Below are positions 4,677-22,255 of a stretch of DNA of 64,000 nt, piece by piece. The stretch comes from Thermoanaerobaculia bacterium (lineage in GTDB: Bacteria > Acidobacteriota > Thermoanaerobaculia > Multivoradales > UBA5704). Where the stretch lies: contig JBGAGQ010000008.1 of NCBI GenBank assembly GCA_044226625.1, positions 71,836-135,835 of the forward strand, read 5' to 3'. How positions within the stretch are numbered: the stretch's first letter is position 1; every line of letters starts with the position of its first letter. The notes beneath the pieces are model-generated. The model did no database searches and was not told where the DNA came from. It worked only from the letters and a program-made list of their open reading frames with translations. A program made the position numbers and the translations under genes.

Positions 4677-4680
4677 GACC

Positions 4681-5805: not shown

Positions 5806-5824
5806 GACGCCGCCTCCTGGACGC

Positions 5825-5999
5825 GGGAAGGGGCCCGGGGAAATCTCTTCTGCGGGCGCCCCCTCGTAACTCGCTTCGCTCAAACAGACTCGGGGGCGTC
5901 CTCGAAGAGATTTCCCCCGGGTCCCTTCCCTAGAACCCTCCCTCGGTGCTCACCCACGCTCAGACAGACTCGGGGGCGTCCTCGGAGAGATTCCCCCGG
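5825..5999. repeat. REP/MITE-like long hairpin (5825-5930) plus partial direct copy (5957-5999) between hypC and hypD
   Basis: Arms 5825-5863 and 5892-5930 are near-perfect reverse complements around a loop containing AACTCGCTTCGCTCAAACA; cgctca(a/g)acagactcgggggcgtcctcg.agagatt recurs 80 bp later. Confidence 0.8.
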
Positions 6000-6063
6000 C
6001 CTGGCACCGACCTGCCAATTTCGTTGCCCATCGAAGGGCAAGATTGAATCAAGCCGAGCTGGG

Positions 6064-6324
6064 TTAGTTGGCCGCCTCCGCCCCACCCAGCTCCTCTTCG
6101 AGCAGACCCAGCTCGCGAAACTGGCGCAGGGTCTCCATCGCGGAGGCCTCGTCGATCCGGCTGATCGCGAAGCCGACGTGGACGATCGCATAATCGCCCA
6201 CCACCGCGTCCGGCAGGTAGGCGAGGCAGACCTCTTTCGTGATGCCGCCGAAGTCGAGGCGCGCCATGCGCGTCCCGCCCCCTTCGTAGATCTCGGTGAT
6301 GCGGCCCGGTACCGCGAGGCACAT
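6064..6324 (-). CDS. hypC: Hydrogenase chaperone HypC
   Basis: MCLAVPG N-terminus, GDYAIVHVGFAI. Confidence 0.97.
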   Translation of the reverse strand: MCLAVPGRITEIYEGGGTRMARLDFGGITKEVCLAYLPDAVVGDYAIVHVGFAISRIDEASAMETLRQFRELGLLEEELGGAEAAN

Positions 6325-6328
6325 GGCG

Positions 6329-7489
6329 CTACTCCTGTCGGGAAAGATCCCAGAGCATGACGCGATTGTTGCCTGAATCGGCGATCGCCAGGCGGTCGCC
6401 GTCGAGGCAGATCCCATACGGCCAGCAGAGCGTGTCGGAGCGCACCGCCTGCCAGCGGTTCTCGCCGTTGCCGGCGAAATCGGCTTGGCCGATCACCCGG
6501 TCGGCGGGCGCGCCGCATTCGAGCGGCGCTCCGCGCCAGAGCAGGATCCGGTTGTTCGCGGTGTCCGCCACCGCCAATCGTCGGCCGTCGCTCGCCAGAG
6601 CATACGGAAAACGGAGCGTCGAGGCGCTCTGCGGCGCGTACGGGAACTCGCCCGCCGCCAAGAGGTCGGTCTGGCCCAGGGCGAAGTCGGCCTCGCGGTC
6701 TCCCTCCCCATCCCGCGGTCCGCCGACCCAGCCGAGCACACGGTGGTTGCCGGCGTCGGCGACATAGGTCACCCCCGCGGCGCCGACGATCGCGTGGGGC
6801 CAGCGAAACGAGCGCCCGGACGGCGCGCCGCCCCGGTTCTCGTCGGACGACAGGAAATCGGGCTGCCCGAGCACCGCGTCGGCCGCGCGGTCGCGCTCCG
6901 GCAGGCCGCGCCAGGCGAGGACGCGGCGGTTGCCGGTGTCGGCGACGTAGAACCAGCCCTCGACCCACCCGAGGCCGTAGGGCCAGTAGAGGCCGGCAGC
7001 CGAGACCGCGCCGCCCCGGTTCGGTTCGACCGAAGACAAATCGACCTGCCCGAGCGCCCAATCCGGCGCCTGGTCCGAACGGTCGGGAATTCGATCCCAG
7101 ATCAGAACGCGGTGATGCCAGGCGTCGGCCACGACCAGCCGTCCGTCGATCACGGCGAGGCCGGTGGGCAGATGGAAGCCGTTCTCCGGCCCGCGCCCTG
7201 CCCCCTTCGGACCTTCGCTCTCCGCCGACGGCTGACCGAGGATCACGTCGGCGGCCGCCCCGTCGTCCGTCGGAACGCCGTGCCAGAGCAGCAGCCGGTG
7301 GTTGCCCGAATCGGCGACCGCGAGCAGATCGCCGGAGAGGAAGACGCCGCGCGGCGCATAGAGCTGGCTCGCCGTCGGCGTGCCGCTCGGCAGGGCGAGA
7401 CCGCCCGGCGCGGGCGCCCCGACTCGGACGGGTGTTTTCGCCTCGACGCCGGTCCGATCGAGCTCGATCCCCGAGGGTCCGTTTCCCAT
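6329..7489 (-). CDS. NHL-repeat beta-propeller protein (group 2a hydrogenase accessory)
   Basis: Repeated VADSGNHR/VADTGNRR/ADAGNHR...LGQ units; position upstream of hypC. Confidence 0.9.
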   Translation of the reverse strand: MGNGPSGIELDRTGVEAKTPVRVGAPAPGGLALPSGTPTASQLYAPRGVFLSGDLLAVADSGNHRLLLWHGVPTDDGAAADVILGQPSAESEGPKGAGRGPENGFHLPTGLAVIDGRLVVADAWHHRVLIWDRIPDRSDQAPDWALGQVDLSSVEPNRGGAVSAAGLYWPYGLGWVEGWFYVADTGNRRVLAWRGLPERDRAADAVLGQPDFLSSDENRGGAPSGRSFRWPHAIVGAAGVTYVADAGNHRVLGWVGGPRDGEGDREADFALGQTDLLAAGEFPYAPQSASTLRFPYALASDGRRLAVADTANNRILLWRGAPLECGAPADRVIGQADFAGNGENRWQAVRSDTLCWPYGICLDGDRLAIADSGNNRVMLWDLSRQE

Positions 7490-7497
7490 ACGCGGGT

Positions 7498-8424
7498 CTA
7501 CTCGGGCCTCACGTAGATCGTCCCCCGCTCGACGCGCAGTGGATAGGGCTCGAGCTGCGCCTGCGGCGCGGTCAGGCATTCGCCCGTGCGCCCGTCGAAA
7601 CGGAAGCCGTGCCAGGGGCAGGAGATCGTCCGTCCAGACACGTCGACCAGGCCGCCGTCGACCGGCAAGCCCTGGTGGGCACAGGCGTTCTTGAACGCGT
7701 AGAGCGCGTCGCCGAAACGCAGCAGCACGGCGCTGCCGTCGGCGGTCTCCAGGCGGTAGGGCTTACCCTCCTCGACCGCGTCGGCGGCGGGACCTTCCAC
7801 CCAGCCCTGGTCCTCCAGCCGGACGTCCGCCCGGCGGCGCAACGCGTCGAGCGACACGAACCCCGCGGTCGGCTCGCCGCTGGTCGGTACCACCCGCTCG
7901 ATCTCCGGCACGTGGGTGCGGAGCGCTTCCTCCACCCCTTGCCGCAGCGTCGTCGCCGACATCGAACAGCCGTGGCAGGCGCCGGAGAGGCGCACGGTCG
8001 CCGTCGTCCCCTCGATCTCGACCAGCTCGACGTCGCCGCCGTGCGATCGGAGAAACGGGCGCACTTGGTCGAGGGCGCGCTCCACCCGCGTGCGCAGATC
8101 CGCCCGCACCAGGCCGTGCATGGCGAACAGGGCGTAGATCGAGGGCTCGTCGACGAACTCGTAGAGGATCTCCGCGCCGCGCGGATCGGCCTTGAGCGCG
8201 CGCACGATCCGCGTGAGCCCCTCTTTGTGGAACGCCTCGATCGCGCGGCGCAGCTCGACCGCCGGTTCGCGCGCGGAGGTCTCGAGCGCGTCAACCGCGG
8301 CGATCGCGCGGTCGACGCGCGACGCGAGCCGGTCGAGCTCGGACTCGGCCGGTCTCTCGGCCGGTCTCTCGGCCGGTAACCCGGCGTTCGGGGGATCGAT
8401 CCTGTTTTCCGTCACGGAGCTCAT
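7498..8424 (-). CDS. NifU-C plus Rieske [2Fe-2S] protein (HucE-like)
   Basis: VRPFLRSHGGDVEL...GACHGCSMS (NifU-C); CAH...CPWHG (Rieske). Confidence 0.9.
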   Translation of the reverse strand: MSSVTENRIDPPNAGLPAERPAERPAESELDRLASRVDRAIAAVDALETSAREPAVELRRAIEAFHKEGLTRIVRALKADPRGAEILYEFVDEPSIYALFAMHGLVRADLRTRVERALDQVRPFLRSHGGDVELVEIEGTTATVRLSGACHGCSMSATTLRQGVEEALRTHVPEIERVVPTSGEPTAGFVSLDALRRRADVRLEDQGWVEGPAADAVEEGKPYRLETADGSAVLLRFGDALYAFKNACAHQGLPVDGGLVDVSGRTISCPWHGFRFDGRTGECLTAPQAQLEPYPLRVERGTIYVRPE

Positions 8425-8816
8425 TCGACGATCTCACGATCCGGCTCGGTGCTCGAGAACGCGGCGCTCCGTTCGAGCGCCTCTTCGGCCTTGGCGCGCA
8501 AGAGATCGGCAAAAGCGGCGCGGGCGAGCGCCTGGAGCGTCTCGCCGACCGTGCCCCGCGGCGCGACACCCGCGGGCGCCGGCCGGCGCTCGAGCGCCTG
8601 GAGCACGAACGAGGCGCCGGCCGCGTCGCCGAGCAAAAACTCCTCGAACAGCGCGCCGCAAAACTCCGCGAGCCAGATCCCGGGCCCGTCCGGATCGCGG
8701 CGCAGCCGCTCGAGCGCCGGGGCGGCGCCGCCGTTGCGCTGCTCCAGCCGCTCGACATATCGCTCGACCGCGGTCGCGAACAGGAAATCGAACTGCTGTC
8801 GCGCGTAGAGGTCCAT
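8421..8816 (-). CDS. Hypothetical protein of the hydrogenase cluster (131 aa)
   Basis: ATG at 8816 coupled to the upstream stop; MDLYARQQFDFLFATAVERYVERL...; stop overlaps the next start. Confidence 0.75.
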   Translation of the reverse strand: MDLYARQQFDFLFATAVERYVERLEQRNGGAAPALERLRRDPDGPGIWLAEFCGALFEEFLLGDAAGASFVLQALERRPAPAGVAPRGTVGETLQALARAAFADLLRAKAEEALERSAAFSSTEPDREIVE

Positions 8817-10156
8817 CAGCTCCCCTCGCCGACCGCGGCGACGACGTCCAGGTTCGCGCCCTCGGCTCCCGAGCGGGCGGCCAGCCGCTCGTTGATCCGC
8901 GCCACCTGCTCGAGCGCGCTCGCGGCGAGGTCCGGCTCGCCATGCCAGTGGAAGAGCTTGTGCGCCTCTTCGAGCTTCGACAGGGCGGGGGCGAAGATGC
9001 CGAGATGCGCGAGCGCGTTCGCCTGGTTGGCGAGCAGGCGGGCGTAGCCGAGCGGGTCGAGCGCGCGGTTGCGGACCGCGAGCAGCTGCTCGTAGATCTC
9101 GACCGCCTGGACCAGATTCTCCTCGGGGTGGGACGAGGGAAGGTACTGGAGCGCGTTCGCTAGGTTGAGCTGGGCGGAGGACCAAGCTTCCGGATGGGCT
9201 TCCGGAGTCCAGACCTTGAGCGCCTCGCGGAACGACTGCACCGCGACCGCCATACGCAACGGCGAGGCCGCCTCTCCCATCGGCAGCGCAAGGTAGGCGA
9301 GCCCCAGGTTGTTCTGGGCGTGGGCGTAGCCCTCGGCGCCCCGTTCGAGCGAGAGCCCCGTGTGGATCGCCGCCTGATAGGCGCTCACCGCCTCGAGCAG
9401 GGCCGAGCGATCCGTGCCGGCCTCTTGGTGGTAGAGCTCGCCGAGCGAGAGATGGAGGCCCGCCCGCAGCGGCGAGCGCCCACCGTCCGCGACCTCGGGG
9501 ACCAGCGAGAGCGCCTCCCGTAGGAGAGTGATCGCGCGGCGGCGGTCGTTCGGCGCGAGCAGGCTGGCCTTCTGGGCGAGAAGCTGCGCGGCCAGCGACG
9601 GCGAGATCGCACGCGCCGCCTCGACGCCCGAGCCGAGCGTCGCGAGCGCGGCTTCGATCTCTCCCGCTCCCAGTTGCGCCGCCGCGCGCACCATCGCGAC
9701 GAGCGCCGACACGAGGGGATGGACGGATTCGCCGGCTCCGGGAGCCTCCGGCAACTCGTCGCTCCCTCCCGAAGCGAAGTCGGCGCAGGCGATCAACCGC
9801 GCGAGGTCGGCGGCGATCGGATCGGGCAGCGCGGCGAGCGCCTCGGGATCGCCCGAGAGGACGAAGCGATCGTAGGCGAGGGCGAACGTCGCCTGCTCGC
9901 TTACGGCTCCAGAGTGCAGATCGTGCGCATTGAGAGCATCGAGCGCCCCGTCGAAATCTCCCTCGGCGGCGCGCCGATAGAACTCCCATTCCTCGGGCAT
10001 GGGTCCGGAAAGGTCGCCCGCGATCCATCGGCGGTAGGCCTCCTCGGCGAGCGGCGACGCGCTCTCGGGCAGCAGGAGGAAGCCCGCGGGCGCGGGAAGG
10101 ATTCCGAGCGGCTGGGGCCCGAACGGTAGGTTGAAAGCGGCGGTCGGATCAGGCAT
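8816..10156 (-). CDS. TPR-containing hydrogenase accessory protein
   Basis: YAHAQNNLGLAY, WSSAQLNLANAL, YARLLANQANAL TPR-like helices. Confidence 0.85.
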   Translation of the reverse strand: MPDPTAAFNLPFGPQPLGILPAPAGFLLLPESASPLAEEAYRRWIAGDLSGPMPEEWEFYRRAAEGDFDGALDALNAHDLHSGAVSEQATFALAYDRFVLSGDPEALAALPDPIAADLARLIACADFASGGSDELPEAPGAGESVHPLVSALVAMVRAAAQLGAGEIEAALATLGSGVEAARAISPSLAAQLLAQKASLLAPNDRRRAITLLREALSLVPEVADGGRSPLRAGLHLSLGELYHQEAGTDRSALLEAVSAYQAAIHTGLSLERGAEGYAHAQNNLGLAYLALPMGEAASPLRMAVAVQSFREALKVWTPEAHPEAWSSAQLNLANALQYLPSSHPEENLVQAVEIYEQLLAVRNRALDPLGYARLLANQANALAHLGIFAPALSKLEEAHKLFHWHGEPDLAASALEQVARINERLAARSGAEGANLDVVAAVGEGS

Positions 10157-10505
10157 TCGAAGATTCCTGTCGCGGCGTCGTAACCGAGGACGTAGAGAGC
10201 GACGAGGACGGCGCGGGAAGCAGGGCGACCCGCAGGGCGCCGCGGGGCTCGTCCCAGAATGCCGGCAGGTCACCGCTCGCGACGTCCGGCGGCAGCACCT
10301 CCGAGATCAACACGGCGCGGTCGCCCGCGCGGTTGCGCTGCTTGAGCAGCATACCGCCGCCCCCCTGTCCGCGCACCGGCACTAACCAGAGCTCGCGATC
10401 GACCACCCGAGCGACCAGGGCGTCGGTCGGGAAATAGCGCTCGGCGACCGCGGCCGTCAGCCGGAGCGAGCCGTCCCGCGTGAGCTCGACTTCTACGAGC
10501 GCCAT
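10149..10505 (-). CDS. Small protein downstream of the hydrogenase protease
   Basis: Overlaps both neighbours; YFPTD...GGMLLKQRNRAGDRAVLI pattern recalled from group 2a clusters. Confidence 0.75.
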   Translation of the reverse strand: MALVEVELTRDGSLRLTAAVAERYFPTDALVARVVDRELWLVPVRGQGGGGMLLKQRNRAGDRAVLISEVLPPDVASGDLPAFWDEPRGALRVALLPAPSSSLSTSSVTTPRQESSNA

Positions 10506-11050
10506 GTCGGAACCTCCTCGGATCCGGCGCTCTCAGGAGCGTCGGCGACTTCCGCGAGGAGCCGCGGAGCGAGCTTCGCCATCGCCGCTTCGACCGGCGG
10601 CGACAGGGGTGCGCCCAATTCGAGCGATTCGGCTTCGATCAGGTAGATCGTGACCTTCCGAGGGTATTCGTCCTTGAGCAGCCAACGGGCGAACGCGAGC
10701 GCGTGGTCCCAACGGAACGCGTGGAGGTTGATCCCGGCGAGCGGCGGCAGCTGCTCCACCCGTTCGCCTGGAAGGCGGAACGTCGCGCCGGGCTCGCTAC
10801 CGCTGCGGCAGGCGTCGACCAGGATCACGTGCGGGACTCCGCGCATCTGGAACGCGACGTCCATGCCGCCGGTGCCGCCGTCGGCGCAGCGCACGCCGTG
10901 CGGTAACCCCAACTCCCAGAGGTGACGGACGAGGATCGGGCCGACCGCGTCGTCGCCGCGCAGGATGTTGCCGCAGCCGACGATCAAGGCCCGCACCCGC
11001 TCGCCCGAGGGCGGCGGGATGCGGGCGGCTTCGCTTGCCTGCTCGATCAT
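10493..11050 (-). CDS. Hydrogenase maturation endopeptidase (HupW/HybD family)
   Basis: GCGNILRGDDAVGP, DGGT, ILVDA, NLH motifs. Confidence 0.95.
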   Translation of the reverse strand: MIEQASEAARIPPPSGERVRALIVGCGNILRGDDAVGPILVRHLWELGLPHGVRCADGGTGGMDVAFQMRGVPHVILVDACRSGSEPGATFRLPGERVEQLPPLAGINLHAFRWDHALAFARWLLKDEYPRKVTIYLIEAESLELGAPLSPPVEAAMAKLAPRLLAEVADAPESAGSEEVPTWRS

Positions 11051-11063
11051 GCGCTCACGATCT

Positions 11064-12695
11064 CTAACCCAGCTCTCCGATCCGGAAGCTCGACAGCTCG
11101 CGGTCCGTCTTGCCGTCGTAGACGTGGACGGTGCAGACGAGGCACGAGTCGAACGAGCGCGCGACGTGCCCCATCTCGACCGGGTCGGTCGGATCGGTGA
11201 TCCGCGACCCGATGAACGCCTGCTCCATCGGTCCGAGCGTGCCGACTCGGTCGCGCGGGCCGATGTTCCACGCGGTCGGGGTAATGACCTGATAGTTCTC
11301 GATCTTGCCGCCGCTGATCACGATCCAGTCCGAGAGAGAGCCCCGCGCCGCCTCGGTCGAGCCGAAGCCGCGCCCTTCCGAAAGCTCCTCGGGCTTCTCG
11401 TAGAACCGGTCGTGCAGGTCGATCCGGTCGAGCCACGAGCGCGTGAGCTGGTAGTACTTCGCCGCCTCGTGCATGCGCGCCATGACGCGCACCAGAATGC
11501 TCGGACCGACCGTCTGGATCGCGTCGAGGAAGAGCGGATCGTAATCCTGATGGCCGAGCGCCCCCTGCCGGCCGGCGATCACCTGGCGCGACAGCGGCCC
11601 GACCTCGAGCGGCATCGGCCCCTTGCCCGGCACTTCGTAGCGCGGCGACTTCGCCCAGCTGTACTTGCCCTGCTTGTGGCCGTCGGCCGGATCGATCGGA
11701 TCGGTCTCCCCCTGCCAAGGATGGAGGAAACGATCGCCTTTATAAAACGAGTGCGACGTGTCCTCGCGCACGTTCAAGTGATCGAAGTCGTGGAAGCCCG
11801 AGCCGTCGTAGATCCCCGAACGGTTGATCAGCGCGTCGTTGCGACCTTCGATCGTCGGCCGCTCGTAGCGCTCGGGATCGAAATAGGTGCCGGTCGCGAG
11901 GTACGCGCCGCAGCCGCCGCCGAACTTGTCGAGCCCCGCGCGCTGCGCGAAGCGGAGGAACAGGCCGCAGTCCGAGTTGCGATGGCCGTCGTTTTCGTCC
12001 GCCCAGGCGAGCACGTCGGCCCAGGTCCGGTTTTCGAGCCAGCGCTCGACCGAGCCGCCGAGCCAGGACTTCTCCAGCCATTCGCGCTTCCAGTGATCGA
12101 GGATCGCGATCGCCCGGGTGACGTCGGAAAGGGTCGGCGCGCACATCACGCCGCCCGGGATCATGAAGCTCGAATGCGGCCACTGGCCGCCGAACATCGC
12201 GTAGACCTCGACCGGCTTGGCCGAGAGCGTGACTCCGTGCTCGTAGCTCGTGCCGACGAACGGCGCGAAACGGCGCACCACCTCGTCGTATTCGGGCAGG
12301 TGGGCGTAGTTCTTGTTCGTGAGGTCGATCGCGAACAGGGCATAGAACCAGCGCGGAATCGACAGCAGCGTCTCGCACGCCTGGGCGATGTTGCGCACGA
12401 GCGTCGCGTTGTGCGGCACCCGCGTCTTCCACGCCGTGTCGAGCGCGTAGACCGCCTTGTGGAGGTGGCTGCCGCCGCAGATGCCGCAGATGCGCGGCGT
12501 GACGATCAGGCCGGCCTGGGGATCCTTGCCGCGCAGGATGATCTCGAAACCGCGGAACATGCTCGCTTCGGTCCAGGCCTCGGTGACCACGCCGTCGCGA
12601 ATCTTGACCCGCAGGTCGAGGTCGCCTTCGACGCGTCCCAGGGGGCTGATCCGCAGGTCGGCGGGCATCGGCAGGGTCTCGGTCGCAGTTGTCAT
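11064..12695 (-). CDS. hucL: Group 2a [NiFe]-hydrogenase large subunit (HucL/HupL type)
   Basis: GRVEGDL; L1 TPRICGICGGSH; L2 ARSFDSCLVCTVH followed by a cleavable C-terminal extension. Confidence 0.93.
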   Translation of the reverse strand: MTTATETLPMPADLRISPLGRVEGDLDLRVKIRDGVVTEAWTEASMFRGFEIILRGKDPQAGLIVTPRICGICGGSHLHKAVYALDTAWKTRVPHNATLVRNIAQACETLLSIPRWFYALFAIDLTNKNYAHLPEYDEVVRRFAPFVGTSYEHGVTLSAKPVEVYAMFGGQWPHSSFMIPGGVMCAPTLSDVTRAIAILDHWKREWLEKSWLGGSVERWLENRTWADVLAWADENDGHRNSDCGLFLRFAQRAGLDKFGGGCGAYLATGTYFDPERYERPTIEGRNDALINRSGIYDGSGFHDFDHLNVREDTSHSFYKGDRFLHPWQGETDPIDPADGHKQGKYSWAKSPRYEVPGKGPMPLEVGPLSRQVIAGRQGALGHQDYDPLFLDAIQTVGPSILVRVMARMHEAAKYYQLTRSWLDRIDLHDRFYEKPEELSEGRGFGSTEAARGSLSDWIVISGGKIENYQVITPTAWNIGPRDRVGTLGPMEQAFIGSRITDPTDPVEMGHVARSFDSCLVCTVHVYDGKTDRELSSFRIGELG

Positions 12696-12727
12696 GTCTC
12701 TCTCCGTACCGTTTTACGCGTGAGCGC

Positions 12728-13699
12728 CTAGACGACGAACATGTCTTCCTTCGACCACTTCGGAGCCGCAACGCGGGCGGCGGCGGCGTGCGCCATGTAG
12801 GAAACGTGATCGGTCCCCACCGGCACCTCCTTCGGGATCGTGCCGCTGATCTTCTGGGTCTTGAACACGGTCCCCGGCTTCAAGTCGTGGAACGGGAACT
12901 CGGGCTCGGTGCAGCCGGTGCACGGCATGCCCGCGCGCGTCTTGCTCGACTGGCGGTTCCAGAGGATGCGGTTGCACGGCGAATGCGTGAGCGGGCCGCG
13001 GCAGCCGAATTCGTAGAACAGACAGCCGGTGCGCGTACCCTGGCCGAACTCCATCGTCGCCTGCTTGTACTCGAAGAACTGGACGCGGGTGCAGCCGGTC
13101 TGGGTGAAGGTCTTGAAGAAGGTCACCGGGCGCTGCAAGTCGTCGAGCGCGATGTCGGCCGCGCGCCCCGAGGCGATCGCGACCAGGATCTGGGTCACCC
13201 AATCCGGATGCGCGGGGCAGCCCGGGATGTTGATCACCGGCAGCCCCCACTTCGAGCGGAAGCCCGCGCCGAGGAAGCCGCCGTGGTTGCGCTTGAGATA
13301 TTGCAGCCCGACGTTGTCGACCGGGTTCGGCTCGGTCGCCGGGATGCCGCCCCAGCAGGCGCAGTCGCCGAGGGCGACCACGGCGTTGGCCCGCGCGGCG
13401 ATCTCTTTGACCCAATCCTTCATCGGTCGGTCGGCGAACATGTTGTAGCGGCCGGTGCCGTTCGGCCCCTGGATGACCGTCCCTTCGAAGACGAAGATGT
13501 CGAGCGGCCGGGCGCCGGTCGCGCAATCGTTGAAGATCTTCTTGGCGTTGTCGCCCATCTCCATCCCGAGCGACGGATGCCAGAGCACGTCGATCCCGAA
13601 GTCGGTGACCAGGTCGCACGCGCTCGGTTCTTCCGCGTTCAGGAACGACATCGTGTTGCCGCTGCATGCGCCACCTTGTAGCCAGAGAACGGTCGCCAT
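12728..13699 (-). CDS. hucS: Group 2a [NiFe]-hydrogenase small subunit (HucS/HupS type, no Tat signal)
   Basis: LWLQGGACSGNTMS (Asn in place of second Cys), GDCACWGG, PGCPAHP, CLFYEFGCRGP, C..C; AAGGAGG RBS. Confidence 0.93.
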   Translation of the reverse strand: MATVLWLQGGACSGNTMSFLNAEEPSACDLVTDFGIDVLWHPSLGMEMGDNAKKIFNDCATGARPLDIFVFEGTVIQGPNGTGRYNMFADRPMKDWVKEIAARANAVVALGDCACWGGIPATEPNPVDNVGLQYLKRNHGGFLGAGFRSKWGLPVINIPGCPAHPDWVTQILVAIASGRAADIALDDLQRPVTFFKTFTQTGCTRVQFFEYKQATMEFGQGTRTGCLFYEFGCRGPLTHSPCNRILWNRQSSKTRAGMPCTGCTEPEFPFHDLKPGTVFKTQKISGTIPKEVPVGTDHVSYMAHAAAARVAAPKWSKEDMFVV

Positions 13700-13952
13700 C
13701 GCGTGCGCCTCCTTGCTCGATCCGTGGAAAATCTGCGGCATCTTGCCCGCCCCTCCGACGCGGGGCAATAGCAAGAATTGGGTAGGCGGTCCCCGCGCCG
13801 CGCGGGTTCATGGGCATCGCGGATGGCGAGGGTGGAGATGCGGAAGAACGTGCGAAAACGAACGGGGCCTCCGCGTGCGCGGAGGCCCGGGCCCATCGAC
13901 TTCAAAGCTACAGACCGACAGAGCTTCGAACCTCTGAGGTCGCTCCCACCCT

Positions 13953-15263
13953 CTACCTCTTGCCGACCGATCCTTTCCGTTCGCGCATCTCCTCGGCCAT
14001 CTGACGGATTTCCGTGAGGTCTCGCTTCATCTCGCTCCACCCGTACCAGAGCGCGTAATCCGGGTTGGCGTGGAAGGTCCCCTGGAACAGGCGCATCCGA
14101 TGCTCGAGATGCATCTCGAAGAGCTTTTGCTCGATCGGCGTCGGCGCGTCATGGAACGTCAGCAGGTCGGGGAAGGCCGAGGCGTAGGACGCCGGCTTCT
14201 CCAGGATGCCGTCCTTGTAGAGCGCGACGATGGTGCGGATCGCCTCGGCGAGAAGGTGGTCGCCTTCGCGGATGAGCCGGTCGCCCTTCTCGAGCTCCGC
14301 CTTGGCGAAATTCTCCGAATGGCATTGGCTGCAAGCGTTCATCAGCTTCCGCCGCTCGGCCTGGAAATCCTCGGTGGTGAGGCGAGCGACGTCCGCCGCC
14401 TTCACCACGTCGAGGCGCGGGGTTGGCTTGCCGGCCGGATCGAGCACTCCCAGCGCCTGGAGGATCGTCACCTGGTCCGCGGACCATTGCGGATCGTCGG
14501 AGAGCGGCAAGCGAACGGCGAGGAAACCCCACGGCGTGCGGACCTCGTGGTTGCCCGCCTGCATGTGACAGGTCTGGCAGGTCGGGGCCGCGGTCGAGGC
14601 GGGGAGCGTGCCGTTCTGCTTGAGCAGGGCACGCACGCCGTGCTTGGAGGCGGAGTACATCTCCCACTGGGGATGGTCGAATCCCATGTGGCAGGTCTGG
14701 CAAGCCTGCGGCTGGCGCGCCTCGACCACGGAGAACGTGTGGCGCGTGTGGCAGGCGTCGCAGGAGGCGACGCCGAAGCCGGCGCCTTCACCGCGCAGGC
14801 GCCGGATCTCGTCCGCGCTCTTGATGCCGATCTTGTGGCAGCCGCCGCAGCCCTTCATGCCGTCAGAAAGCGCCACCGGCATGGCATGGGTCGTGGGCAT
14901 CGCCTGCAAGGCCGCCCAAGCCTTGGAATGTTTCCCGGCGGTGAACTGCGTAACCTGGTCGGAGTGGCACTGGCCGCAGGTCTCCGGCGTGGGGATCTCG
15001 ACCTTCGCGACGTCGACGGCCGAGGAGTGCTGGCTGCCGTGGCAATCCGCGCAATCGATCCCGCTCGAGCTGTGCTTGCTGATCTCCCAATCGGTGACGA
15101 TGCTCGGCGTGACGGTGCGATGGCATTCGACGCAGCTGGACGTGGACGCGGCATGCGCGGGGATCGGTGCCGGCGGCGCCTCGGCTCCCGCCGCGATCCG
15201 AGCTTGCCACGCCAGCACCGCGAACGACGAAACCGTCAAGGCCCGAACGAGCCTATTCCTCAT
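13953..15263 (-). CDS. Secreted octaheme cytochrome c, hydroxylamine oxidoreductase (HAO) family
   Basis: Signal peptide; eight CxxCH motifs; CDACHTRHTFS, CHMGFDHPQWEMY..SKHG, FHANPDY motifs. Confidence 0.88.
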   Translation of the reverse strand: MRNRLVRALTVSSFAVLAWQARIAAGAEAPPAPIPAHAASTSSCVECHRTVTPSIVTDWEISKHSSSGIDCADCHGSQHSSAVDVAKVEIPTPETCGQCHSDQVTQFTAGKHSKAWAALQAMPTTHAMPVALSDGMKGCGGCHKIGIKSADEIRRLRGEGAGFGVASCDACHTRHTFSVVEARQPQACQTCHMGFDHPQWEMYSASKHGVRALLKQNGTLPASTAAPTCQTCHMQAGNHEVRTPWGFLAVRLPLSDDPQWSADQVTILQALGVLDPAGKPTPRLDVVKAADVARLTTEDFQAERRKLMNACSQCHSENFAKAELEKGDRLIREGDHLLAEAIRTIVALYKDGILEKPASYASAFPDLLTFHDAPTPIEQKLFEMHLEHRMRLFQGTFHANPDYALWYGWSEMKRDLTEIRQMAEEMRERKGSVGKR

Positions 15264-15393
15264 CGAAGAATCCTCCCTTGGGTAGCTGAAAACCTTGCGG
15301 AGCACTCTACCCCAGCCCGCCCGTTCCGCCGCGGTGCGAGCGCCCACCTCGACGGGTAGATCGAAGGCCACCCGAACAGGCGGGACGCTCGTG

Positions 15394-16029
15394 CTACATG
15401 CCGGCGCGGGGCATCAGGATCAGGCCGTGGGCGACCGCAGCGCGCACCAGCTCGACTTGATTGTGGGCGTCGAGCTTCTGCATCAGGTTCGCGCGATGGC
15501 GGGTCGCCGTGTGCGGCGAAACGCCGAGAATCTCGGCGATCTGCTGCGTGGTGCGGCCGTCGGCGATCAGCTGCAATACCTCGCGCTCGCGCGCGGTGAG
15601 GCTCGAGCGCGAGGTCTCGATCGCCTCGATCTGCGCGAGGTCGAGGCTCCGACTGACGTAGCGTCGGCCGGCGAGAACTGACTCGAGCGCCTGGAAAAGC
15701 TCGTCGTCCATCGCGTGCTTGAGCAGGTAGCCGTCGGCGCCGTCGGCGAGAGCTTGGGCCACGAACTGCACGTCGTCGAACATCGAGAGGACGAGCACCC
15801 TCGTTCGCGCTCCCCTGGCACGCAGCCGGCGCAGCGTTTCGAGCCCGTCGAGGCGCGGCATCGAGAGGTCGAGCACCAGGGCGTGCGGCGACTTCTCGCT
15901 CACGGCCGCGAGAGCATCCTCGCCGTTGCCGGCTTCCGCCGCGATCTCGAACCGTCCGTCGGTCGCGAGCAGCGCCGCGAGACCGCGGCGGACCAGGGCG
16001 TGATCGTCGGCGAGTACGATCCTAAACAC
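15394..16029 (-). CDS. NarL/LuxR family response regulator
   Basis: LADDH, LDLSMP, GYLLK, LTAREREVLQLIADG...HRANLMQKL. Confidence 0.95.
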   Translation of the reverse strand: MFRIVLADDHALVRRGLAALLATDGRFEIAAEAGNGEDALAAVSEKSPHALVLDLSMPRLDGLETLRRLRARGARTRVLVLSMFDDVQFVAQALADGADGYLLKHAMDDELFQALESVLAGRRYVSRSLDLAQIEAIETSRSSLTAREREVLQLIADGRTTQQIAEILGVSPHTATRHRANLMQKLDAHNQVELVRAAVAHGLILMPRAGM

Positions 16030-17830
16030 CGTCGCCTCCGGCCCAGGGAACCGCCACCTCGATCGCCGTGCCGAGACCCGGCGAGGCGTCGATCGAGAGC
16101 GTGCCGCCGAACATTCCGACCCTTTCGCGCATGCCGAGCAGGCCGAGGCCGTGGCGAACCGTCGAGGGATCGAAGCCGCGGCCGTCGTCCGCCACGGTGA
16201 GCCGAAGGCTCCCCGCATCGGCGCGGAGCGACACGCGGACCCGCCGCGCCTCCGCGTGGGCGGCCACGTTGGTGAGCGCTTCCTGGGCGATGCGGTAGAT
16301 CGCGATCTCCGCGGCCGAGGCGAGGCAGGAGGGCAACGGAGGCAGGTCGAGGTCGACCTCGAAGCCCGCACGCACGCTGTACTCGATCGCGAGCTGTTTG
16401 AGCGCGACTTCGAGGCCGAGCTGATCGAGAGTCGGCGGTCGCAGGCGCCGCGCCAGATCTTTGATCCGCGCCGTCGCGGCGTTCACCTGCTCGCGCAACT
16501 GGTCGATCTGGTCGCGCAACGCCGCCTGCTCGGCGGGGACCAGTCGCGACATTACCTGGAGGCCGAGCTTGACGCCGACCAGAGCCTGCCCCGCCTCGTC
16601 GTGGAGTTCGCGCGCGATGTGCTTGCGCTCGTCTTCGAGGATCGTCACGTTGTGCATCGAGAGCGCCCGAATCTCCTCGCTCTTGTCTTCGAGGTCGGAG
16701 AGGAGCCGGGCGTTTTCGATCGCCACCGCCGTGGTGTTGGCGAGCGAATCCAAGAACGTCGCGTCCTGCCAAGTGAACGGCGGCTGTTCCGCGGAGCGGT
16801 GGAGCTCGAAGAATCCGAGCACGCGACCGTCGCTCGACTTGATCGGGATCGAGACCGCGCGCGCGATGCCGTAGGCCTCCACCAGGTCGGGATCGCCGAG
16901 CGAATCGCTCGCATAGTCGTTGATCAGACAGGGAAACTCGATCTCCAGCAGACGGCCCGCGAGCCCGTCGCCGCGCCGAAAGCGGCGCGGGCGCTCGCTC
17001 CAGCCGGAGCGGTGCCAATAGCAGGAGGCGACCAATTCGTGCTCACCGGACGGCGCCGGCTCGGCGAGACCCGCGAGCCCGCCACCCGCCTTGAGGAAGC
17101 GCGCGGCATGCTCGACAAGATGCCGCACCAGCTCCGCCGAATCGAGGCGCGCGTTGACCGCGGCGCCGAACGCGAGCAGCGCTTCGAGGCCGGTCGACCA
17201 ATCGCCCAAGCGCTCGATCAGCAGCGACCGCTCGAAGCCCACCGCCGCCTGAAGCGCGATCGTCTCGGCCAGGCGCAGCTCGATCGCCCCGAACGGCGAC
17301 GGTCCCTTTCGATCGATCGCCAGCAGAACCGCGACGGCGCGCCCCTGATGATCGAGCGCGGGGACCGCGAGTAGATTCCGCCAGCCGAAATCTCCGAGCG
17401 TCCAGCGCGACGCGACCGCGTCGCCGGGGGCGTTGGCGACGAACCCTCGGCGGTGACGGGCCACCTCCAGCAGGAGCTCGAGCGGCGCCTCGTCGCCCGT
17501 CTGTCGATCGGCACCACCGGTCCGGTGGTCGCCGATCGCTCCGAGCACCTGTTCGTCGGTCGCGGCGACCACCGCCCGGCGCGCGTGCAGGGCGGTCGCG
17601 AAGGCACGGGCGAGCGAGCCGGCGATCTCCGCGCTGCCGAGCTCGTCGACCACCGCGCGCGCCGTCGAATGGACCCGCTCGATCGCGGCGAGAATCCGGG
17701 CATCCTCGGCTCGCCCGGAGGGCGGGCTCCAGGAGGGGGCTACCCGTTGGGCCGGGGCCTCGGCCGGCTCCCCTTCGACCGGGTCCACGCCGCGCTCGGG
17801 CGTCAAGAGAATCGCGGAATCGGGGGGCAT
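16022..17830 (-). CDS. Soluble GAF-GAF-HisKA_3 sensor histidine kinase
   Basis: Two GAF-like domains; ERKHIARELHDE, YRIAQEALTNV, DDGRGF, GLGLLGMRER. Confidence 0.93.
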   Translation of the reverse strand: MPPDSAILLTPERGVDPVEGEPAEAPAQRVAPSWSPPSGRAEDARILAAIERVHSTARAVVDELGSAEIAGSLARAFATALHARRAVVAATDEQVLGAIGDHRTGGADRQTGDEAPLELLLEVARHRRGFVANAPGDAVASRWTLGDFGWRNLLAVPALDHQGRAVAVLLAIDRKGPSPFGAIELRLAETIALQAAVGFERSLLIERLGDWSTGLEALLAFGAAVNARLDSAELVRHLVEHAARFLKAGGGLAGLAEPAPSGEHELVASCYWHRSGWSERPRRFRRGDGLAGRLLEIEFPCLINDYASDSLGDPDLVEAYGIARAVSIPIKSSDGRVLGFFELHRSAEQPPFTWQDATFLDSLANTTAVAIENARLLSDLEDKSEEIRALSMHNVTILEDERKHIARELHDEAGQALVGVKLGLQVMSRLVPAEQAALRDQIDQLREQVNAATARIKDLARRLRPPTLDQLGLEVALKQLAIEYSVRAGFEVDLDLPPLPSCLASAAEIAIYRIAQEALTNVAAHAEARRVRVSLRADAGSLRLTVADDGRGFDPSTVRHGLGLLGMRERVGMFGGTLSIDASPGLGTAIEVAVPWAGGDGV

Positions 17831-17848
17831 CGCCCTATGCGCCGCGGT

Positions 17849-18553: not shown

Positions 18554-18942
18554 CCGTTTCGATTCCCAGGTACCGGTTCGTCGGAGGCATCCGCGGCCGT
18601 CTCGACCGAGAGGCCCTCGAGATGCAGCTCGCGCCCCTGGCGGATGTCGCCGCTCGGCGTGCCGCAGATCGGGCAGCGGAATCGATTGACGTCGGGCAGC
18701 TCGACGTCCCGATCACAGGCGCGACAGTAGACGACCAGAGGGACCTCGCGAACGATCAGCCGAGAACCTTCGAGCAGTGTACTCCGAGTCGCGATGTCGT
18801 AGCAGAAGAGCAAAGAGTCAATCGATACGCCCGACATCGCCCCGACCACGATCCGCACCTCGTCGACCCGCCGCGCACCGGCTCGCTCCGCGGCGGGGAT
18901 CGCGAGCTCGACCAGCGAATGAGCGATCGACAGCTCGTGCAT
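18550..18942 (-). CDS. hypA: Hydrogenase nickel metallochaperone HypA
   Basis: MHELSIA N-terminus, CRAC and CPIC. Confidence 0.97.
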   Translation of the reverse strand: MHELSIAHSLVELAIPAAERAGARRVDEVRIVVGAMSGVSIDSLLFCYDIATRSTLLEGSRLIVREVPLVVYCRACDRDVELPDVNRFRCPICGTPSGDIRQGRELHLEGLSVETAADASDEPVPGNRNG

Positions 18943-18954: not shown

Positions 18955-19740
18955 TCAGTCGCCGAGGGCCCGACCGTAGCGCTTGGCGACGTAGAGGAAG
19001 AGGCGCAGCGTCGCCTGGATCTGCGGGTCCTTGAGCGAGCGATAGAGGTCCCAGAGGCCGAGCGGTTTGCCCTCCTCCGATTTGAAATCCTGATAGCTCG
19101 CCGCCACGATCCGGCCGAGCTGGGCGAGCACCTCGACCGTTTGCCGGTCGAACATTCCGGCCTCGTTGAGGACGTTGCCCGCGTCGACCAGCCCCGGCAG
19201 CGCCGCCATCACTTTGCGCACCTGCTCGCCGTCGACGTCGGGCAGCGCAGACTTGAGATCGCTCACCCCCGCCGCGACCGACTCGAGCACCGTGTCGCTC
19301 CGGCGCAGGAAGCCGTCGAGCGAGTCGAGGAGGAACGCGGCGACCTCGATCTTTTCGAGCAGACCCGAAAGGCTCGCCAACGTCTTCGGATCCGCGAGCT
19401 TTTCGAGCAGGCCGGAATCGAGCAGCCTCTCCACCTCGGGTCGACCGGCAACCTCCGCCATCCGTTCGCCGGCGCGCAACATCTGGGGGAGCTTTGCGAC
19501 CGCCGCGCCGCTCCCTTCTCCGCCGGCAAGTCCGCGCAGCTCGGTCAACCCTTGGGCGACCGAATCGGCGACCACCTCGGCCCGGCGCAGGAAGCCTTCG
19601 AGCGCCTCGGCGGTGAAGACGATGACGTCGAGGCGGTCGAGCAGCCGGTTGAGCGCGTCGACCGTCGCCGGCTCGGCGAGCCGCTCCTGCAACCGCTCCT
19701 GGGGCGTAAGCACCGCTGCACTTCCGTGGCCGCTCGCCAT
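18955..19740 (-). CDS. DUF1641-type helical protein (HucM/helical membrane plug-in-like) with internal duplication
   Basis: C-terminal KPLGLWDLYRSLKDPQIQATLRLFL; duplicated L(E/D)GFLRR.(E/D).V..SVA.G..(E/D)L segment. Confidence 0.75.
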   Translation of the reverse strand: MASGHGSAAVLTPQERLQERLAEPATVDALNRLLDRLDVIVFTAEALEGFLRRAEVVADSVAQGLTELRGLAGGEGSGAAVAKLPQMLRAGERMAEVAGRPEVERLLDSGLLEKLADPKTLASLSGLLEKIEVAAFLLDSLDGFLRRSDTVLESVAAGVSDLKSALPDVDGEQVRKVMAALPGLVDAGNVLNEAGMFDRQTVEVLAQLGRIVAASYQDFKSEEGKPLGLWDLYRSLKDPQIQATLRLFLYVAKRYGRALGD

Positions 19741-19924
19741 GCTCTGGTCTCTCCCTCGTGCGCTGGGGTCTGCCGATTTCGGGCGTTTATACTCCTCGCA
19801 CCCCCAAGCGACCATGGCATGAACATGCTATTCGGCCCGTCCGAGCCCGAGTCGAGCGAAGCTCGTGCGGCGCGATCCGGGGGCGCGCTTCCCTCCGGCC
19901 CTCGGCCTAGAATCGCCGCAGCGC

Positions 19925-22255
19925 ATGTCCTCCGAGCCGCTACTTCGTCGCCGCCTCCTCGTCGGCGGCATCGTCCAAGGGGTCGGATTCCGTCCGTTCG
20001 TCCACGGCCTCGCGCGCCGCCACGCCCTCGCGGGCTCGGTGCGGAACGTCGCCGGAGGCGTGGCGATCGAGATCGAGGGGCCGGCCGAGGCGGTCGCAGC
20101 GTTCGAGCGCGAGCTGGTCCACGACGCGCCGCCGCTCGCCGCGATCGACGAGATCCGGGCCGAGACGATCGCGCCTCTCGGCGAGCTCGATTTCCGCATC
20201 GAGGCGAGCGGCGCGGCCGAGGCGGTGCCCACCCCGGTCTCCCCCGATGTCGCGGTGTGCGACGCCTGCCGGGCCGAGCTGCTCGATCCGGCCGACCGGC
20301 GCTACCGTTATCCCTTCCTCAACTGCACCGACTGCGGCCCCCGCTTCACGATCATCGAGTCGCTCCCCTACGACCGGCCGCGCACCACCATGCGCCGGTT
20401 CTCGATGTGCCCGAGCTGCCGGGCCGAATACGACGATCCCGAGAGCCGGCGCTTTCACGCCCAGCCGAACGCGTGCCCGGTGTGCGGACCGCGGCTCCGC
20501 TTCGAGCGAGCGGGCGACCCGGCGCTCGAAGGGGAATCCGCGCGAGCCGCCAGCGGAGAGGCGCTCGACCGGGGAGAGATCGTAGCGGTCAAGGGGATCG
20601 GCGGTTTCCACCTCGCCTGCGACGCGAGGTCCGATGCGGCGGTCGCCACGTTGCGCGCGAGAAAAGCGCGCGGCGGAAAGCCGTTCGCGGTGATGGTCCC
20701 CGACCTCGCCGCGGCCCGCCGACTTGCCGAGCTCACCGAGGACGAGGAGCGCCTGCTCGAAAGCCGCGAGCGTCCGATCGTCCTGGTGCGCCGTCGGACC
20801 TCCGCCGAGGCAGGCCGGATCTCAGATCAAGTCGCTCCCGGGCAGGCGACGCTTGGGCTCCTCCTGCCCTATTCGCCGCTCCACCATCTTCTGCTCGCCG
20901 GCCGCGCGCTGGTCATGACCTCGGGCAACCGGAGCGAGGAGCCGATCTGCCGCGACGACGACGAGGCCCGCGAACGGCTCGGCGCGCTCGCCGACGCGTT
21001 CCTCCTTCACGACCGGGAGATCCACGCGGTGTGCGACGACTCGGTGGTCCGCACCTTCGCCGGTCACGAGCTGCCGCTCCGCCGGTCGCGCGGCTACGCG
21101 CCCTATCCCCTGCGGCTGCCGCGCGCCGCGCCGCCGCTCCTCGCCGTGGGGGCGGAGCTCAAGGCGACGTTCTGTCTCGCCACGGAGCGGCGCGCCTTCC
21201 TCTCCCAGCACATCGGCGACCTCGGAAACCTCGAGACGCTCACGGCGTTCGAGCGCGCGGTGGAGCACCTCTCCGGGCTGTTCCGCATCGAGCCCGAGCG
21301 GATCGCCTGCGACCTCCATCCCGGCTATCTCGGCATGCAATGGGCGGAGCGGCTCGCGAGAGAGCGCGCCCTTCCCCTCGTCAAGGTTCAGCACCATCAC
21401 GCCCACGTGGCGGCGGTGATGGCCGAGCATGGCCTGTCCGGCGACCGGCCGGTGCTCGGGGCGAGCTTCGACGGCACGGGCTACGGGCTCGACGGTGCGA
21501 TCTGGGGCGGCGAGATCCTGCTCGCCGACTACGCGAGAGCCGAGCGGATCGCCCACCTTCGCTACGCGCCGCTGCCCGGAGGGGACGCGGCGATCCGCCA
21601 CCCGCGGCGGATGGCGCTCGCCCACCTCGCCGCCGCGGGGATCGAATGGCACCCCGACCTTCCGCCGGTCGCGGCGACGCCGGAGGCCGAGCGGCGCATT
21701 CTCGCGCGCCAGGTCGAGACCGGTTTCGGCACGGTGCCCACGAGCAGCATGGGCCGGCTGTTCGACGCCGTCGCCGCGCTCGCCGGGCTCTGCCAGGAAT
21801 CGCGCTTCGAGGGAGAGGCCGCGATGGCCCTCGAGGCCGCGGCAGAGACCGCCACCGCACCCACCGAGCCCTACCGCTTCGCGTTGCGCGAGGAGGAGAC
21901 CCTGCGGATCGATCCCGCACCCGTGCTGGAGGCCATCGTCCGCGACGTTCGGCGCGGAGAGCCCGCCGCGCGCATCGCCCGAAGCTTCCATGCCGCCGTG
22001 GCCGATGCCCTCGTCGCGGCCTGCATCCACGGTCGTCGTCAAACCGGCGTCCGCACCGTCGCGCTCTCGGGCGGGGTGTTCCAGAACGTCCTGCTGTTGA
22101 GCTTCGCCGTCGAAGGTCTCGCTCGAGAAGGTTTCGAGGTTCTCACCCACCGGAAGGTCCCGCCGAACGATGGCGGCCTCGCGCTCGGGCAGGCGGCGAT
22201 CGCGGGCTTGGGGGGAGGCACGATCGGACCCACCTCGGATTCTCGCCGTTCGTAG
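19925..22255 (+). CDS. hypF: Carbamoyltransferase HypF
   Basis: GIVQGVGFRPF, zinc-finger Cys pairs, KGIGGFHL, QHHHAH, SSMGRLFD, PNDGGL. Confidence 0.97.
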   Translation: MSSEPLLRRRLLVGGIVQGVGFRPFVHGLARRHALAGSVRNVAGGVAIEIEGPAEAVAAFERELVHDAPPLAAIDEIRAETIAPLGELDFRIEASGAAEAVPTPVSPDVAVCDACRAELLDPADRRYRYPFLNCTDCGPRFTIIESLPYDRPRTTMRRFSMCPSCRAEYDDPESRRFHAQPNACPVCGPRLRFERAGDPALEGESARAASGEALDRGEIVAVKGIGGFHLACDARSDAAVATLRARKARGGKPFAVMVPDLAAARRLAELTEDEERLLESRERPIVLVRRRTSAEAGRISDQVAPGQATLGLLLPYSPLHHLLLAGRALVMTSGNRSEEPICRDDDEARERLGALADAFLLHDREIHAVCDDSVVRTFAGHELPLRRSRGYAPYPLRLPRAAPPLLAVGAELKATFCLATERRAFLSQHIGDLGNLETLTAFERAVEHLSGLFRIEPERIACDLHPGYLGMQWAERLARERALPLVKVQHHHAHVAAVMAEHGLSGDRPVLGASFDGTGYGLDGAIWGGEILLADYARAERIAHLRYAPLPGGDAAIRHPRRMALAHLAAAGIEWHPDLPPVAATPEAERRILARQVETGFGTVPTSSMGRLFDAVAALAGLCQESRFEGEAAMALEAAAETATAPTEPYRFALREEETLRIDPAPVLEAIVRDVRRGEPAARIARSFHAAVADALVAACIHGRRQTGVRTVALSGGVFQNVLLLSFAVEGLAREGFEVLTHRKVPPNDGGLALGQAAIAGLGGGTIGPTSDSRRS

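Follow-up and report, generated by a model that had tools for sequence, protein, structure and literature searches.

In a 64,000-nucleotide stretch of DNA (the window), we found an HAO-like gene, hao, nested within a cluster of hydrogenase genes. We consider it fairly probable that this gene encodes a stand-alone, cross-link-free HAO, likely an N-oxide reductase, that it forms a transcription unit of its own and that its link to H2 oxidation is indirect.

The hao gene occupies 13953..15263 on the minus strand, with an ATG at 15263 (a longer, GTG-started ORF reaches 15371), and encodes a predicted periplasmic octaheme cytochrome c of 436 aa. The translation contains eight CxxCH motifs (residues 44, 71, 96, 139, 168, 188, 229 and 311) and no CxxCK, and its N-terminus, MRNRLVRALTVSSFAVLAWQARIAAGA, resembles a Sec signal peptide when judged by eye. 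Direct repeats within the gene are heme-motif codons. The product matched Pfam PF13447 with an E value of 1.2e-29 (103.8 bits, cut-off 21.9). Its PDB matches ranged from E 7e-32 to 5e-19 and included Kustc0458 (6h5l, 7e-32), N. europaea HAO (NeHAO; 1fgj, 4e-29) and Kuenenia HOX (KsHOX; 4n4j, 8e-27). A profile built from 22 family members strengthened these matches to 9e-40, 1e-34 and 2e-33, respectively, so that Kustc0458 was the best solved match of both the single sequence and the profile. The heme motifs align with those of all three proteins in the HAO order. Asp196-His197, invariant in the 22-member alignment, aligns with NeHAO D267-H268, which is presumably the distal Asp-His pair at the catalytic heme. 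An AlphaFold2 monomer model from the 22-sequence alignment had a poor heme domain (mean pLDDT 61.5, with residues 78-149 and 159-214 below 50). By these sequence criteria, the hao product is an HAO-family octaheme cytochrome c, in agreement with the preliminary description of a secreted, eight-CxxCH protein of this family.

The neighbouring hydrogenase, also on the minus strand, matched Huc of M. smegmatis end to end, bearing out its earlier assignment to group 2a. The large subunit gene, hucL (11064..12695), encodes a product that matched 7utd/7uus over residues 12-524 (E ~1e-261). The product of the small subunit gene, hucS (12728..13699), matched 7uur_D (residues 1-322; E 8e-185); this match starts at residue 2 of the query and HucS therefore has no Tat leader. 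A HucM-like, membrane-associated subunit with a DUF1641 domain (18955..19815) matched 7uus_Q over residues 36-110 (E 2e-11). As far as homology can tell, the enzyme is thus a group 2a/Huc hydrogenase, with its large, small and HucM-like subunits all present. The hao gene lies inside this island, in the order hucM-hypA-hypB-kinase-regulator-hao-hucS-hucL. The intervening minus-strand genes are hypA (18554-18942), hypB (17849-18553), a sensor histidine kinase gene with GAF, HisKA_3 and HATPase_c domains (16022..17830) and a gene for a NarL/LuxR-family response regulator (15394..16050; best match NarL 1a04, E 4e-29), whose approximate start overlaps the end of the kinase gene. The rest of the huc/hyp island (3615..11050, minus strand) comprises genes for a maturation protease (10493-11050), a NifU-Rieske protein (7498-8424) and an NHL-repeat protein (6329-7579), together with hypC (6064-6417), hypD (4681-5883), hypE (3615-4676) and, downstream of the protease gene, two ORFs without assignment (10149-10505 and 8816-10273) that gave no PDB matches. 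The hypF gene (19865..22255) is on the plus strand, divergent from the island. The source genome is probably from Acidobacteriota, class Thermoanaerobaculia. A low-GC stretch of the window is not an rRNA operon, as Rfam gave no match across the whole window.

The preliminary description had read this arrangement as a dedicated module coupling H2 oxidation through the quinone pool to N-oxide reduction. In a narrower form, a lineage-specific module would have the GAF-kinase/NarL-type regulator pair controlling hao and hucSL, possibly with read-through, and nitrite, NO or hydroxylamine would be reduced in the periplasm at the expense of Huc-derived menaquinol under one signal. Several observations favour this: hao sits between the regulator gene and hucS on the same strand, in a complete island with hucM, hypA-F and hucSL; its composition shows no anomaly; and a proposal for Caldithrix abyssi has nitrate ammonified at the expense of H2, with a nitrite reductase of the HAO type (PMC5317091). 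The evidence from relatives, from the hao-hucS spacer and from the gene content of the window argues against it, and we consider such a module unlikely.

The hao family is large, with 7566 homologous proteins at E<=1e-5 among 8000 scored and at least 578 confirmed genomic relatives; the best 120 homologues are 68-88% identical and come from many phyla, and identities of ~70-76% are typical across phyla. We found no Huc or Hyp homologue within 10 kb in any of 80 related loci from many phyla, even with tblastn at E<=1e-3, and the positive control for this search, the window itself, worked. The hao genes of these 80 loci are 66-76% identical, and the closest relatives, P0006 (88%) and P0007-P0009 (80-81%), lie outside the set. 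Recurrent synteny of HAO with group 2a hydrogenases, which had been put forward as a check, was thus not seen at this level of identity. No neighbour of hao is conserved, the commonest neighbour family occurring in 9 of the 80 loci. At loci of 66-76% identity, the family therefore does not look like one normally found beside hydrogenases, and its pairing with huc looks local. The hao gene is a further member of a very large, strikingly conserved and biochemically uncharacterised clade of Tyr-less HAO homologues; because no genomic partner is constant across the clade, a single adjacency is a poor guide to function.

The spacer points the same way. Between the end of the hao stop codon (13953) and the hucS ATG (13699) there are 253 nt, confirming that hao is upstream of hucS by this distance and co-directional with it, as first described. 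Within the spacer, a strong terminator-like hairpin on the minus strand (13855..13888; GGGCCTCCGCG-CA-CGCGGAGGCCC, 10 pairs, 9 of them G-C) is followed by a T-rich tail, CGTTCGTTTT, and is located ~65 nt past the hao stop and ~155 nt ahead of the hucS ATG. No other minus-strand site was reported between 10000 and 19000 (9 kb scanned), although the three terminator-like sites on both strands are no excess over the 4.0 expected from shuffling, and the entire spacer folds in an ordinary way (z -1.24). The regions upstream of hao and hucS had no motif in common beyond two 8-mers, versus about one expected by our own estimate. From this layout, hao is probably transcribed as a separate unit that ends at the hairpin (13865-13888).

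As noted earlier, the window offers no quinol dehydrogenase of the NapC/NrfH type: neither a NapC/NrfH or cytochrome bc gene nor any Nap domain was found among 47 window ORFs, picked by GC3 or reading frame, in a non-exhaustive Pfam scan. Coupling through the quinone pool, which had been proposed as the link within the module, is a generic mechanism that requires a quinol dehydrogenase, absent from these ORFs. Moreover, direct contact is impossible between Huc, a cytoplasmic enzyme, and the HAO, which is predicted to be periplasmic. With Huc/Hyp genes at none of the 80 loci and a hairpin in the spacer, our results do not support the huc-hao pairing as a dedicated unit.

The two-component system appears to have a different allegiance from hao. 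When homologue lists were compared by the size of the longest contig, 11 of 119 non-own kinase rows equalled a top-120 HucL row (five of these contigs being <=16.8 kb), versus one equal-sized contig for hao and HucL, which at 2757 bp is too short for both genes. This matching is indirect and prone to false negatives, and serves as supporting evidence only; the three closest kinase relatives (P0395-P0397) match neither other list. The closest HucL relatives (P0275-P0284) are 84-91% identical. The two-component system looks tied to Huc rather than to hao, as part of the hydrogenase cluster, and hao looks like an insertion in that cluster. The GC content of hao (0.667) is no anomaly beside that of hucS and hucL (0.662-0.669); we found no compositional sign of recent hao transfer and no mobile-element repeats flanking the gene. 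Among solved structures, only the core of the kinase found matches (DesK and, weakly, DevS/DosT). A DosS-like reading of the kinase was dropped, as its GAF domains match no heme-GAF structure at E<=1e-3. As a by-product, the GAF/HisKA_3 kinase and the NarL-type regulator emerge as a candidate regulator of group 2a hydrogenases.

Nesting, co-direction and uniform composition may nonetheless reflect a lineage-specific functional recruitment of hao. In that case, a Thermoanaerobaculia-like lineage would have drawn a normally stand-alone reductive HAO into its Huc regulon, immediately downstream of the GAF-kinase/NarL-type regulator found with group 2a hydrogenases, and high-affinity H2 oxidation would supply menaquinol for the periplasmic reduction of NO, nitrite or hydroxylamine. 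We regard this scenario as improbable; if true, it would describe an acidobacterium of soil or sediment with an N-oxide sink powered by trace gas. More generally, a functional pairing would link the scavenging of atmospheric or trace H2 to nitrogen-oxide turnover in abundant uncultured Acidobacteriota.

In the stand-alone reading that we favour, the hao product would be exported by Sec, receive its hemes and assemble into a trimer. By analogy with its relatives, it is most likely a nitrite, NO and/or hydroxylamine reductase, and its role could be detoxification or ammonifying/NO-forming respiration. Menaquinol would supply the electrons by way of a quinol dehydrogenase whose gene lies elsewhere, and any tie to H2 oxidation would run indirectly through the shared menaquinone pool, possibly with shared regulation. 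Beside this putative quinol supply, we note that neighbours in relatives include Rieske/cytochrome b, NapH-like proteins and multiheme cytochromes. The adjacent neighbours are heterogeneous (145 of 146 ORFs scanned); among them, Rieske proteins occur 3 times, NapH-like Fer4_5 proteins 4 times and hemerythrins 4 times, alongside multiheme cytochromes, ResB and Rrf2.

These neighbourhoods also bear on whether the protein has the HAO fold only and serves in electron transfer or as a non-nitrogen enzyme, acting for example on sulfur compounds or metals. The lack of a conserved N-cycle partner would fit such a role, as would the relatives that adjoin large multiheme cytochromes, an MtrB/PioB-like porin or ResB. 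However, conservation extends to the catalytic Asp-His pair and to the HAO-like motif surrounding the hemes, and several types of neighbour with links to NO or redox stress are seen repeatedly (Rrf2 in 7 loci, hemerythrin, NapH-like proteins and a Crp/Fnr regulator), which makes a role of this kind improbable.

Whether the enzyme is oxidative or reductive turns on the residue at the cross-link position. In the motif FHANPDYALWYGW of the hao product, W406 and Y407 lie eight and nine residues after H398, and this pattern is invariant in 22 family members. In printed alignments, both oxidative enzymes have a Tyr eight residues after the conserved His (H459..Y467 in NeHAO and H407..Y415 in KsHOX, chain numbering); we take Y467 and Y415 to be the P460 cross-link residues. 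This mark of oxidative HAOs is absent from the hao product, in which Trp406 occupies His398+8, as had been concluded by eye. HMMER pairwise alignments were off by one residue in both directions, pairing NeHAO Y467 with L405 and KsHOX Y415 with Y407, and an earlier caveat about the Tyr at +9 therefore stands. In a wider alignment of the query with 55 of 150 listed representatives (those >=370 aa; n=56), His398 was kept in 54 sequences; the +8 position was Trp in 28 and Tyr in none, and the +9 position was Tyr in only 17, with L, R, E, K, N, G or F replacing the +9 Tyr in relatives that retain Trp at +8. The loop after the conserved His is of equal length in Kustc0458 (HAQQDVSWWWGQ versus HANPDYALWYGW, ungapped). 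On present alignments, the hao product is an HAO-family octaheme cytochrome without a Tyr at the canonical His+8 position, with Tyr407 at +9 as a possible alternative.

An oxidative HAO, in which Tyr407 would reach heme 4 of the neighbouring subunit to form a P460-type cross-link and the family would oxidise hydroxylamine or hydrazine, could draw on the invariance of Tyr407 in the 22-member alignment, its place next to the canonical position, its HMMER pairing with the presumed KsHOX cross-link Tyr and the conserved Asp-His pair, but is very improbable given the +8 spacing in both oxidative enzymes where the query has Trp, the lack of a cross-link in the closest solved relative with equal loop length and the replacement of the +9 Tyr in relatives that retain the +8 Trp. 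In addition, published analyses assign the majority of HAOs from outside anammox bacteria and nitrifiers to the reductive class (PMC12758564, PMC8940962). The earlier assignment of the protein to the reductive type thus stands as regards the missing Tyr at His+8 and the closeness to cross-link-free Kustc0458, with Tyr407 at +9 remaining as an alternative. The preliminary description had named two outcomes that would count against its reading, a Tyr aligned with the cross-link position or an observed P460, and synteny unique to this genome with independent transcription; our results approach both.

Among known systems, the closest is Kustc0458 (HAOr) of Kuenenia stuttgartiensis, which has no cross-link and converts nitrite to NO (PMC8042395). 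The hao product shares with it eight hemes, the post-His loop length and the absence of a Tyr at His+8, but has LWY rather than WWW at +7 to +9. Kustc0458 and its diheme partner, Kustc0457, act together as a complex of 60 hemes, whereas hao is flanked by the response regulator gene and hucS, with no cytochrome gene. The eHao proteins of epsilonproteobacteria, like those called 'eHao' in Caldithrix and Deferribacter, are octaheme homologues of HAO that lack the Tyr and have a Trp at the equivalent position; reduction of nitrite and hydroxylamine has been proposed or shown for them (PMC8940962, PMC5317091, PMC6896113). The hao product resembles them in lacking the Tyr and having W406, a comparison by published criteria and not by sequence relatedness. 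It differs from them in that a conserved Met eight residues before the Trp, given as an eHao criterion (PMC8940962), is replaced by H398, and in that eHao genes adjoin nap clusters, whereas the 47 scanned window ORFs contain no Nap domains. With the oxidative HAO/HOX/HDH enzymes (1fgj/4fas of N. europaea, 4n4j of Kuenenia, and 6hif), it has in common the fold family, the heme motif order and the Asp-His pair; those enzymes have the cross-link Tyr at His+8 and chains of 500-582 aa, compared with Trp and 436 aa here. The hydrogenase resembles M. smegmatis Huc (7utd, 7uus and 7uur) in that HucL, HucS and a HucM-like subunit are all encoded in the window. In M. smegmatis, hucM presumably directly precedes hucS, whereas in the window hypA, hypB, the two-component system and hao separate the two genes.

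The hao gene (13953–15263, minus strand) encodes a 436-aa protein that matches PF13447 in Pfam (E = 1.2e-29). Its N terminus is basic and then hydrophobic, resembling by eye a Sec signal peptide, and its eight CxxCH motifs lie at residues 44, 71, 96, 139, 168, 188, 229 and 311; a motif search of the 436 residues found no CxxCK. Among solved structures, the single sequence best matched Kustc0458, the HAOr of Kuenenia (6h5l, E = 7e-32), followed by N. europaea HAO (NeHAO; 1fgj/4fas, E about 4e-29) and Kuenenia HOX (KsHOX; 4n4j, E = 8e-27), with further matches to 6t5e, Ignicoccus 4qo5 and hydrazine dehydrogenase 6hif. A 22-member family profile gave 9e-40, about 1e-34 and 2e-33 for the first three, respectively. 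No NCBIfam model reached its cut-off, the top one being hydrazine dehydrogenase (82 bits versus a cut-off of 900). Asp196-His197 aligned with D267-H268 of NeHAO, and this pair does not vary across the family alignment. The preliminary description of an HAO-family protein with eight CxxCH motifs is borne out; its observation is real.

That description had also placed a Trp eight residues after a conserved His and read the protein as reductive-type. The Trp is where it was reported: His398 is followed by Trp406 at +8 and Tyr407 at +9, and the motif FHANPDYALWYGWSEM is invariant across 22 family members. When the loop was aligned in the query and 55 representatives no shorter than 370 aa, taken from 150 listed of 1767 matches, the His398 position was kept in 54 of the 56 sequences and the loop length was equal in 53; residue +8 was Trp in 28 and Tyr in none. 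The Kustc0458 loop aligned ungapped with that of the query (HAQQDVSWWWGQ) and lacks a Tyr at this place; passages of PMC8042395 describe Kustc0458 as lacking the P460 feature and converting nitrite to NO. One alternative is that Tyr407 is the cross-link residue, which would make the protein oxidative-type, and HMMER indeed places KsHOX Y415 opposite Tyr407, although its gap placement is inconsistent, with NeHAO Y467 opposite Leu405. However, in the printed alignments, Y467 and Y415, which we take to be the cross-link Tyr residues, stand eight residues after the His in both NeHAO (H459..Y467) and KsHOX (H407..Y415, chain numbering), where the query has Trp406. Moreover, Tyr occupies +9 in just 17 of the 56 sequences, and sequences that retain Trp at +8 may instead have L, R, E, K, N, G, V or F at +9. 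The only structure model was poor (pLDDT 61.5). Judged from the alignments, the reductive-type reading appears to be the better one and 'reductive-type HAO' a reasonable label, with Tyr407 still a candidate.

Downstream of hao on the same strand lie hucS (12728–13699) and hucL (11064–12695), encoding the group 2a small and large subunits; the ORF coordinates confirm the reported 253-nt spacer between hao and hucS. HucL matched M. smegmatis Huc (E about 1e-261), and HucS, from its second residue, covered all of the 322-residue Huc small-subunit chain (E = 8e-185), so HucS has no Tat leader. A HucM-like DUF1641 protein (18955–19815, minus strand) matched the membrane-associated subunit HucM (7uus_Q, E = 2e-11), and these three matches uphold the group 2a assignment. 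The HucM-like gene is upstream of hypA, with five genes between it and hucS. The minus-strand order is hucM, hypA, hypB, a GAF/HisKA_3 kinase, a NarL-type regulator, hao, hucS, hucL, the maturation protease, two unassigned ORFs, a NifU-Rieske protein, an NHL-repeat protein, hypC, hypD and hypE, with hypF divergent. We liken the NifU-Rieske fusion protein (7498–8424, minus strand) to the iron-sulfur proteins described next to mycobacterial uptake hydrogenases. The two ORFs downstream of the protease (485 and 118 aa; 8816–10505, minus strand) had no match in Pfam or PDB. A 535-aa ORF in a different frame offers an alternative over this stretch, making the gene model there uncertain.

The hao–hucS spacer contains the sole minus-strand terminator-like site in 10000–19000, a hairpin (13888–13865, minus strand) with a 10-pair stem, nine pairs being G-C, followed by CGTTCGTTTT. 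Such sites were not in excess (3 on both strands versus 4.0 expected from shuffling), and the fold of the whole spacer was unremarkable (z = −1.24); the hairpin is suggestive of a terminator between hao and hucS, short of proof. The upstream regions of the two genes had two 8-mers in common, versus about one expected by our own estimate, and no shared motif beyond these. Elsewhere in the window, a low-GC island (27573–31857, minus strand; GC 0.59–0.60, the window as a whole being at 0.68) encodes a Hachiman-type defence pair identified with PADLOC (HamB helicase PDLC00174, 1210 bits; HamA PDLC00159, E = 1.5e-60), and a MbnB/TglH/ChrH-family (DUF692) RiPP-modifying enzyme is encoded at 50490–51413 (minus strand; E = 1e-55).

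Relatives of the hao protein are numerous. A word-based search gave at least 7566 homologues at E ≤ 1e-5 among 8000 candidates scored, the best 120 of which were 68–88% identical and about 400–460 aa long, from named sources including Acidobacteriota, Planctomycetota, Zixibacteria, Deltaproteobacteria and Xenobia. A genome scan confirmed at least 578 relatives, and we studied the loci of the best 80 (66–76% identical), whose hosts include Gemmatimonadota, Ignavibacteria, Acidobacteriota, Calditrichota, Bacteroidota and Zixibacteria. None of the 80 had a tblastn match to HucS, HucL, the protease, HypA–F or HucM at E ≤ 1e-10 or at E ≤ 1e-3, the latter run including the window as a positive control, which worked. 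Clustering of the ORFs within 5 kb revealed no conserved neighbour: the commonest families were a NapH-like Fer4_5 protein (9 of 80 loci) and an Rrf2 regulator (7 of 80), and about 4 loci apiece had Rieske with cytochrome b, cytochrome bd, or another multiheme cytochrome. The immediate neighbours (145 of 146 ORFs scanned with Pfam, one left out by size) were heterogeneous, comprising Rieske (3), Fer4_5 (4), hemerythrin (4, one a DUF438-hemerythrin-PAS protein) and ResB (3) proteins, several multiheme cytochromes, one Crp/Fnr regulator, one fragment that matched the cytochrome c552 (NrfA-type) family, and numerous unrelated housekeeping genes. Two further arrangements were seen among the relatives (L005:11234–11935, L036:8289–9830 and the upstream ORFs of L068, L070 and L078): the hao-like gene of some adjoins a gene for a cytochrome c554-like protein, or genes for large multiheme cytochromes and ResB, and three loci have another hao-like paralogue some 1.6 kb upstream.

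These contexts suggest a periplasmic N-oxide or redox enzyme fed by whatever quinol-oxidising system its host has available; they do not suggest a hydrogenase partner for the family. The proposed H2-to-N-oxide module, for which recurrent synteny had been sought, was not borne out by these 80 loci, and the hao–huc pairing is at most a local arrangement.

By contrast, the kinase and regulator (15394–17830, minus strand), which lie between hypB and hao, seem to belong to the group 2a cluster, a reading to be taken cautiously. We compared the sizes of the longest contig per homologue cluster among the best-120 kinase, HucL and hao lists. Besides the window's own contig (135835 bp), the kinase and HucL lists had 11 sizes in common (3637, 11037, 15761, 16739, 16753, 90195, 96038, 222051, 376305, 507264 and 750946 bp). 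Because five of these are at most 16.8 kb, the kinase gene and hucL lie close together in several other lineages. The two-component system may thus be conserved alongside group 2a clusters, which makes it a candidate Huc regulator. The test gives false negatives, as the three closest kinase relatives (76–79% identity; 19-, 133- and 142-kb contigs) have no size in common with the HucL or the hao list. In the best 120 listed, the closest named homologues of HucL (84–89% identity) and of the kinase (64–76%) came from Thermoanaerobaculia and Acidobacteriota MAGs. The hao list shared only 2757 bp with HucL, too short for hao, hucS and hucL, and only 12212 bp with the kinase, from entries of different sources; both overlaps are at chance level. 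With due caution, hao appears to be an insertion specific to this lineage, placed between the regulator gene and hucS. Its GC content (0.667 versus 0.662–0.669 for hucS/hucL) is not anomalous and no flanking repeats were found around it, so any insertion was not recent.

Among the papers listed by full-text searches that also covered Thermoanaerobaculia, none described a group 2a–HAO pairing at title and abstract level; in the passages of an Acidobacteriota paper that mention an octaheme, it is Otr (PMC8528874). The hao protein is a further member of an already known group: Tyr-less HAO homologues are described, in parts of PMC8940962 and PMC12758564, as widespread and presumed reductive. Those of Caldithrix and Deferribacter, encoded next to nap genes, are proposed in sections of PMC5317091 and PMC6896113 to be nitrite reductases, H2 being one of the electron donors. 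The eHao-like proteins in the relevant passages of a metagenome study (PMC8940962) carry Trp at the Tyr-equivalent position and Met eight residues before it, whereas the protein studied here has His398 there.
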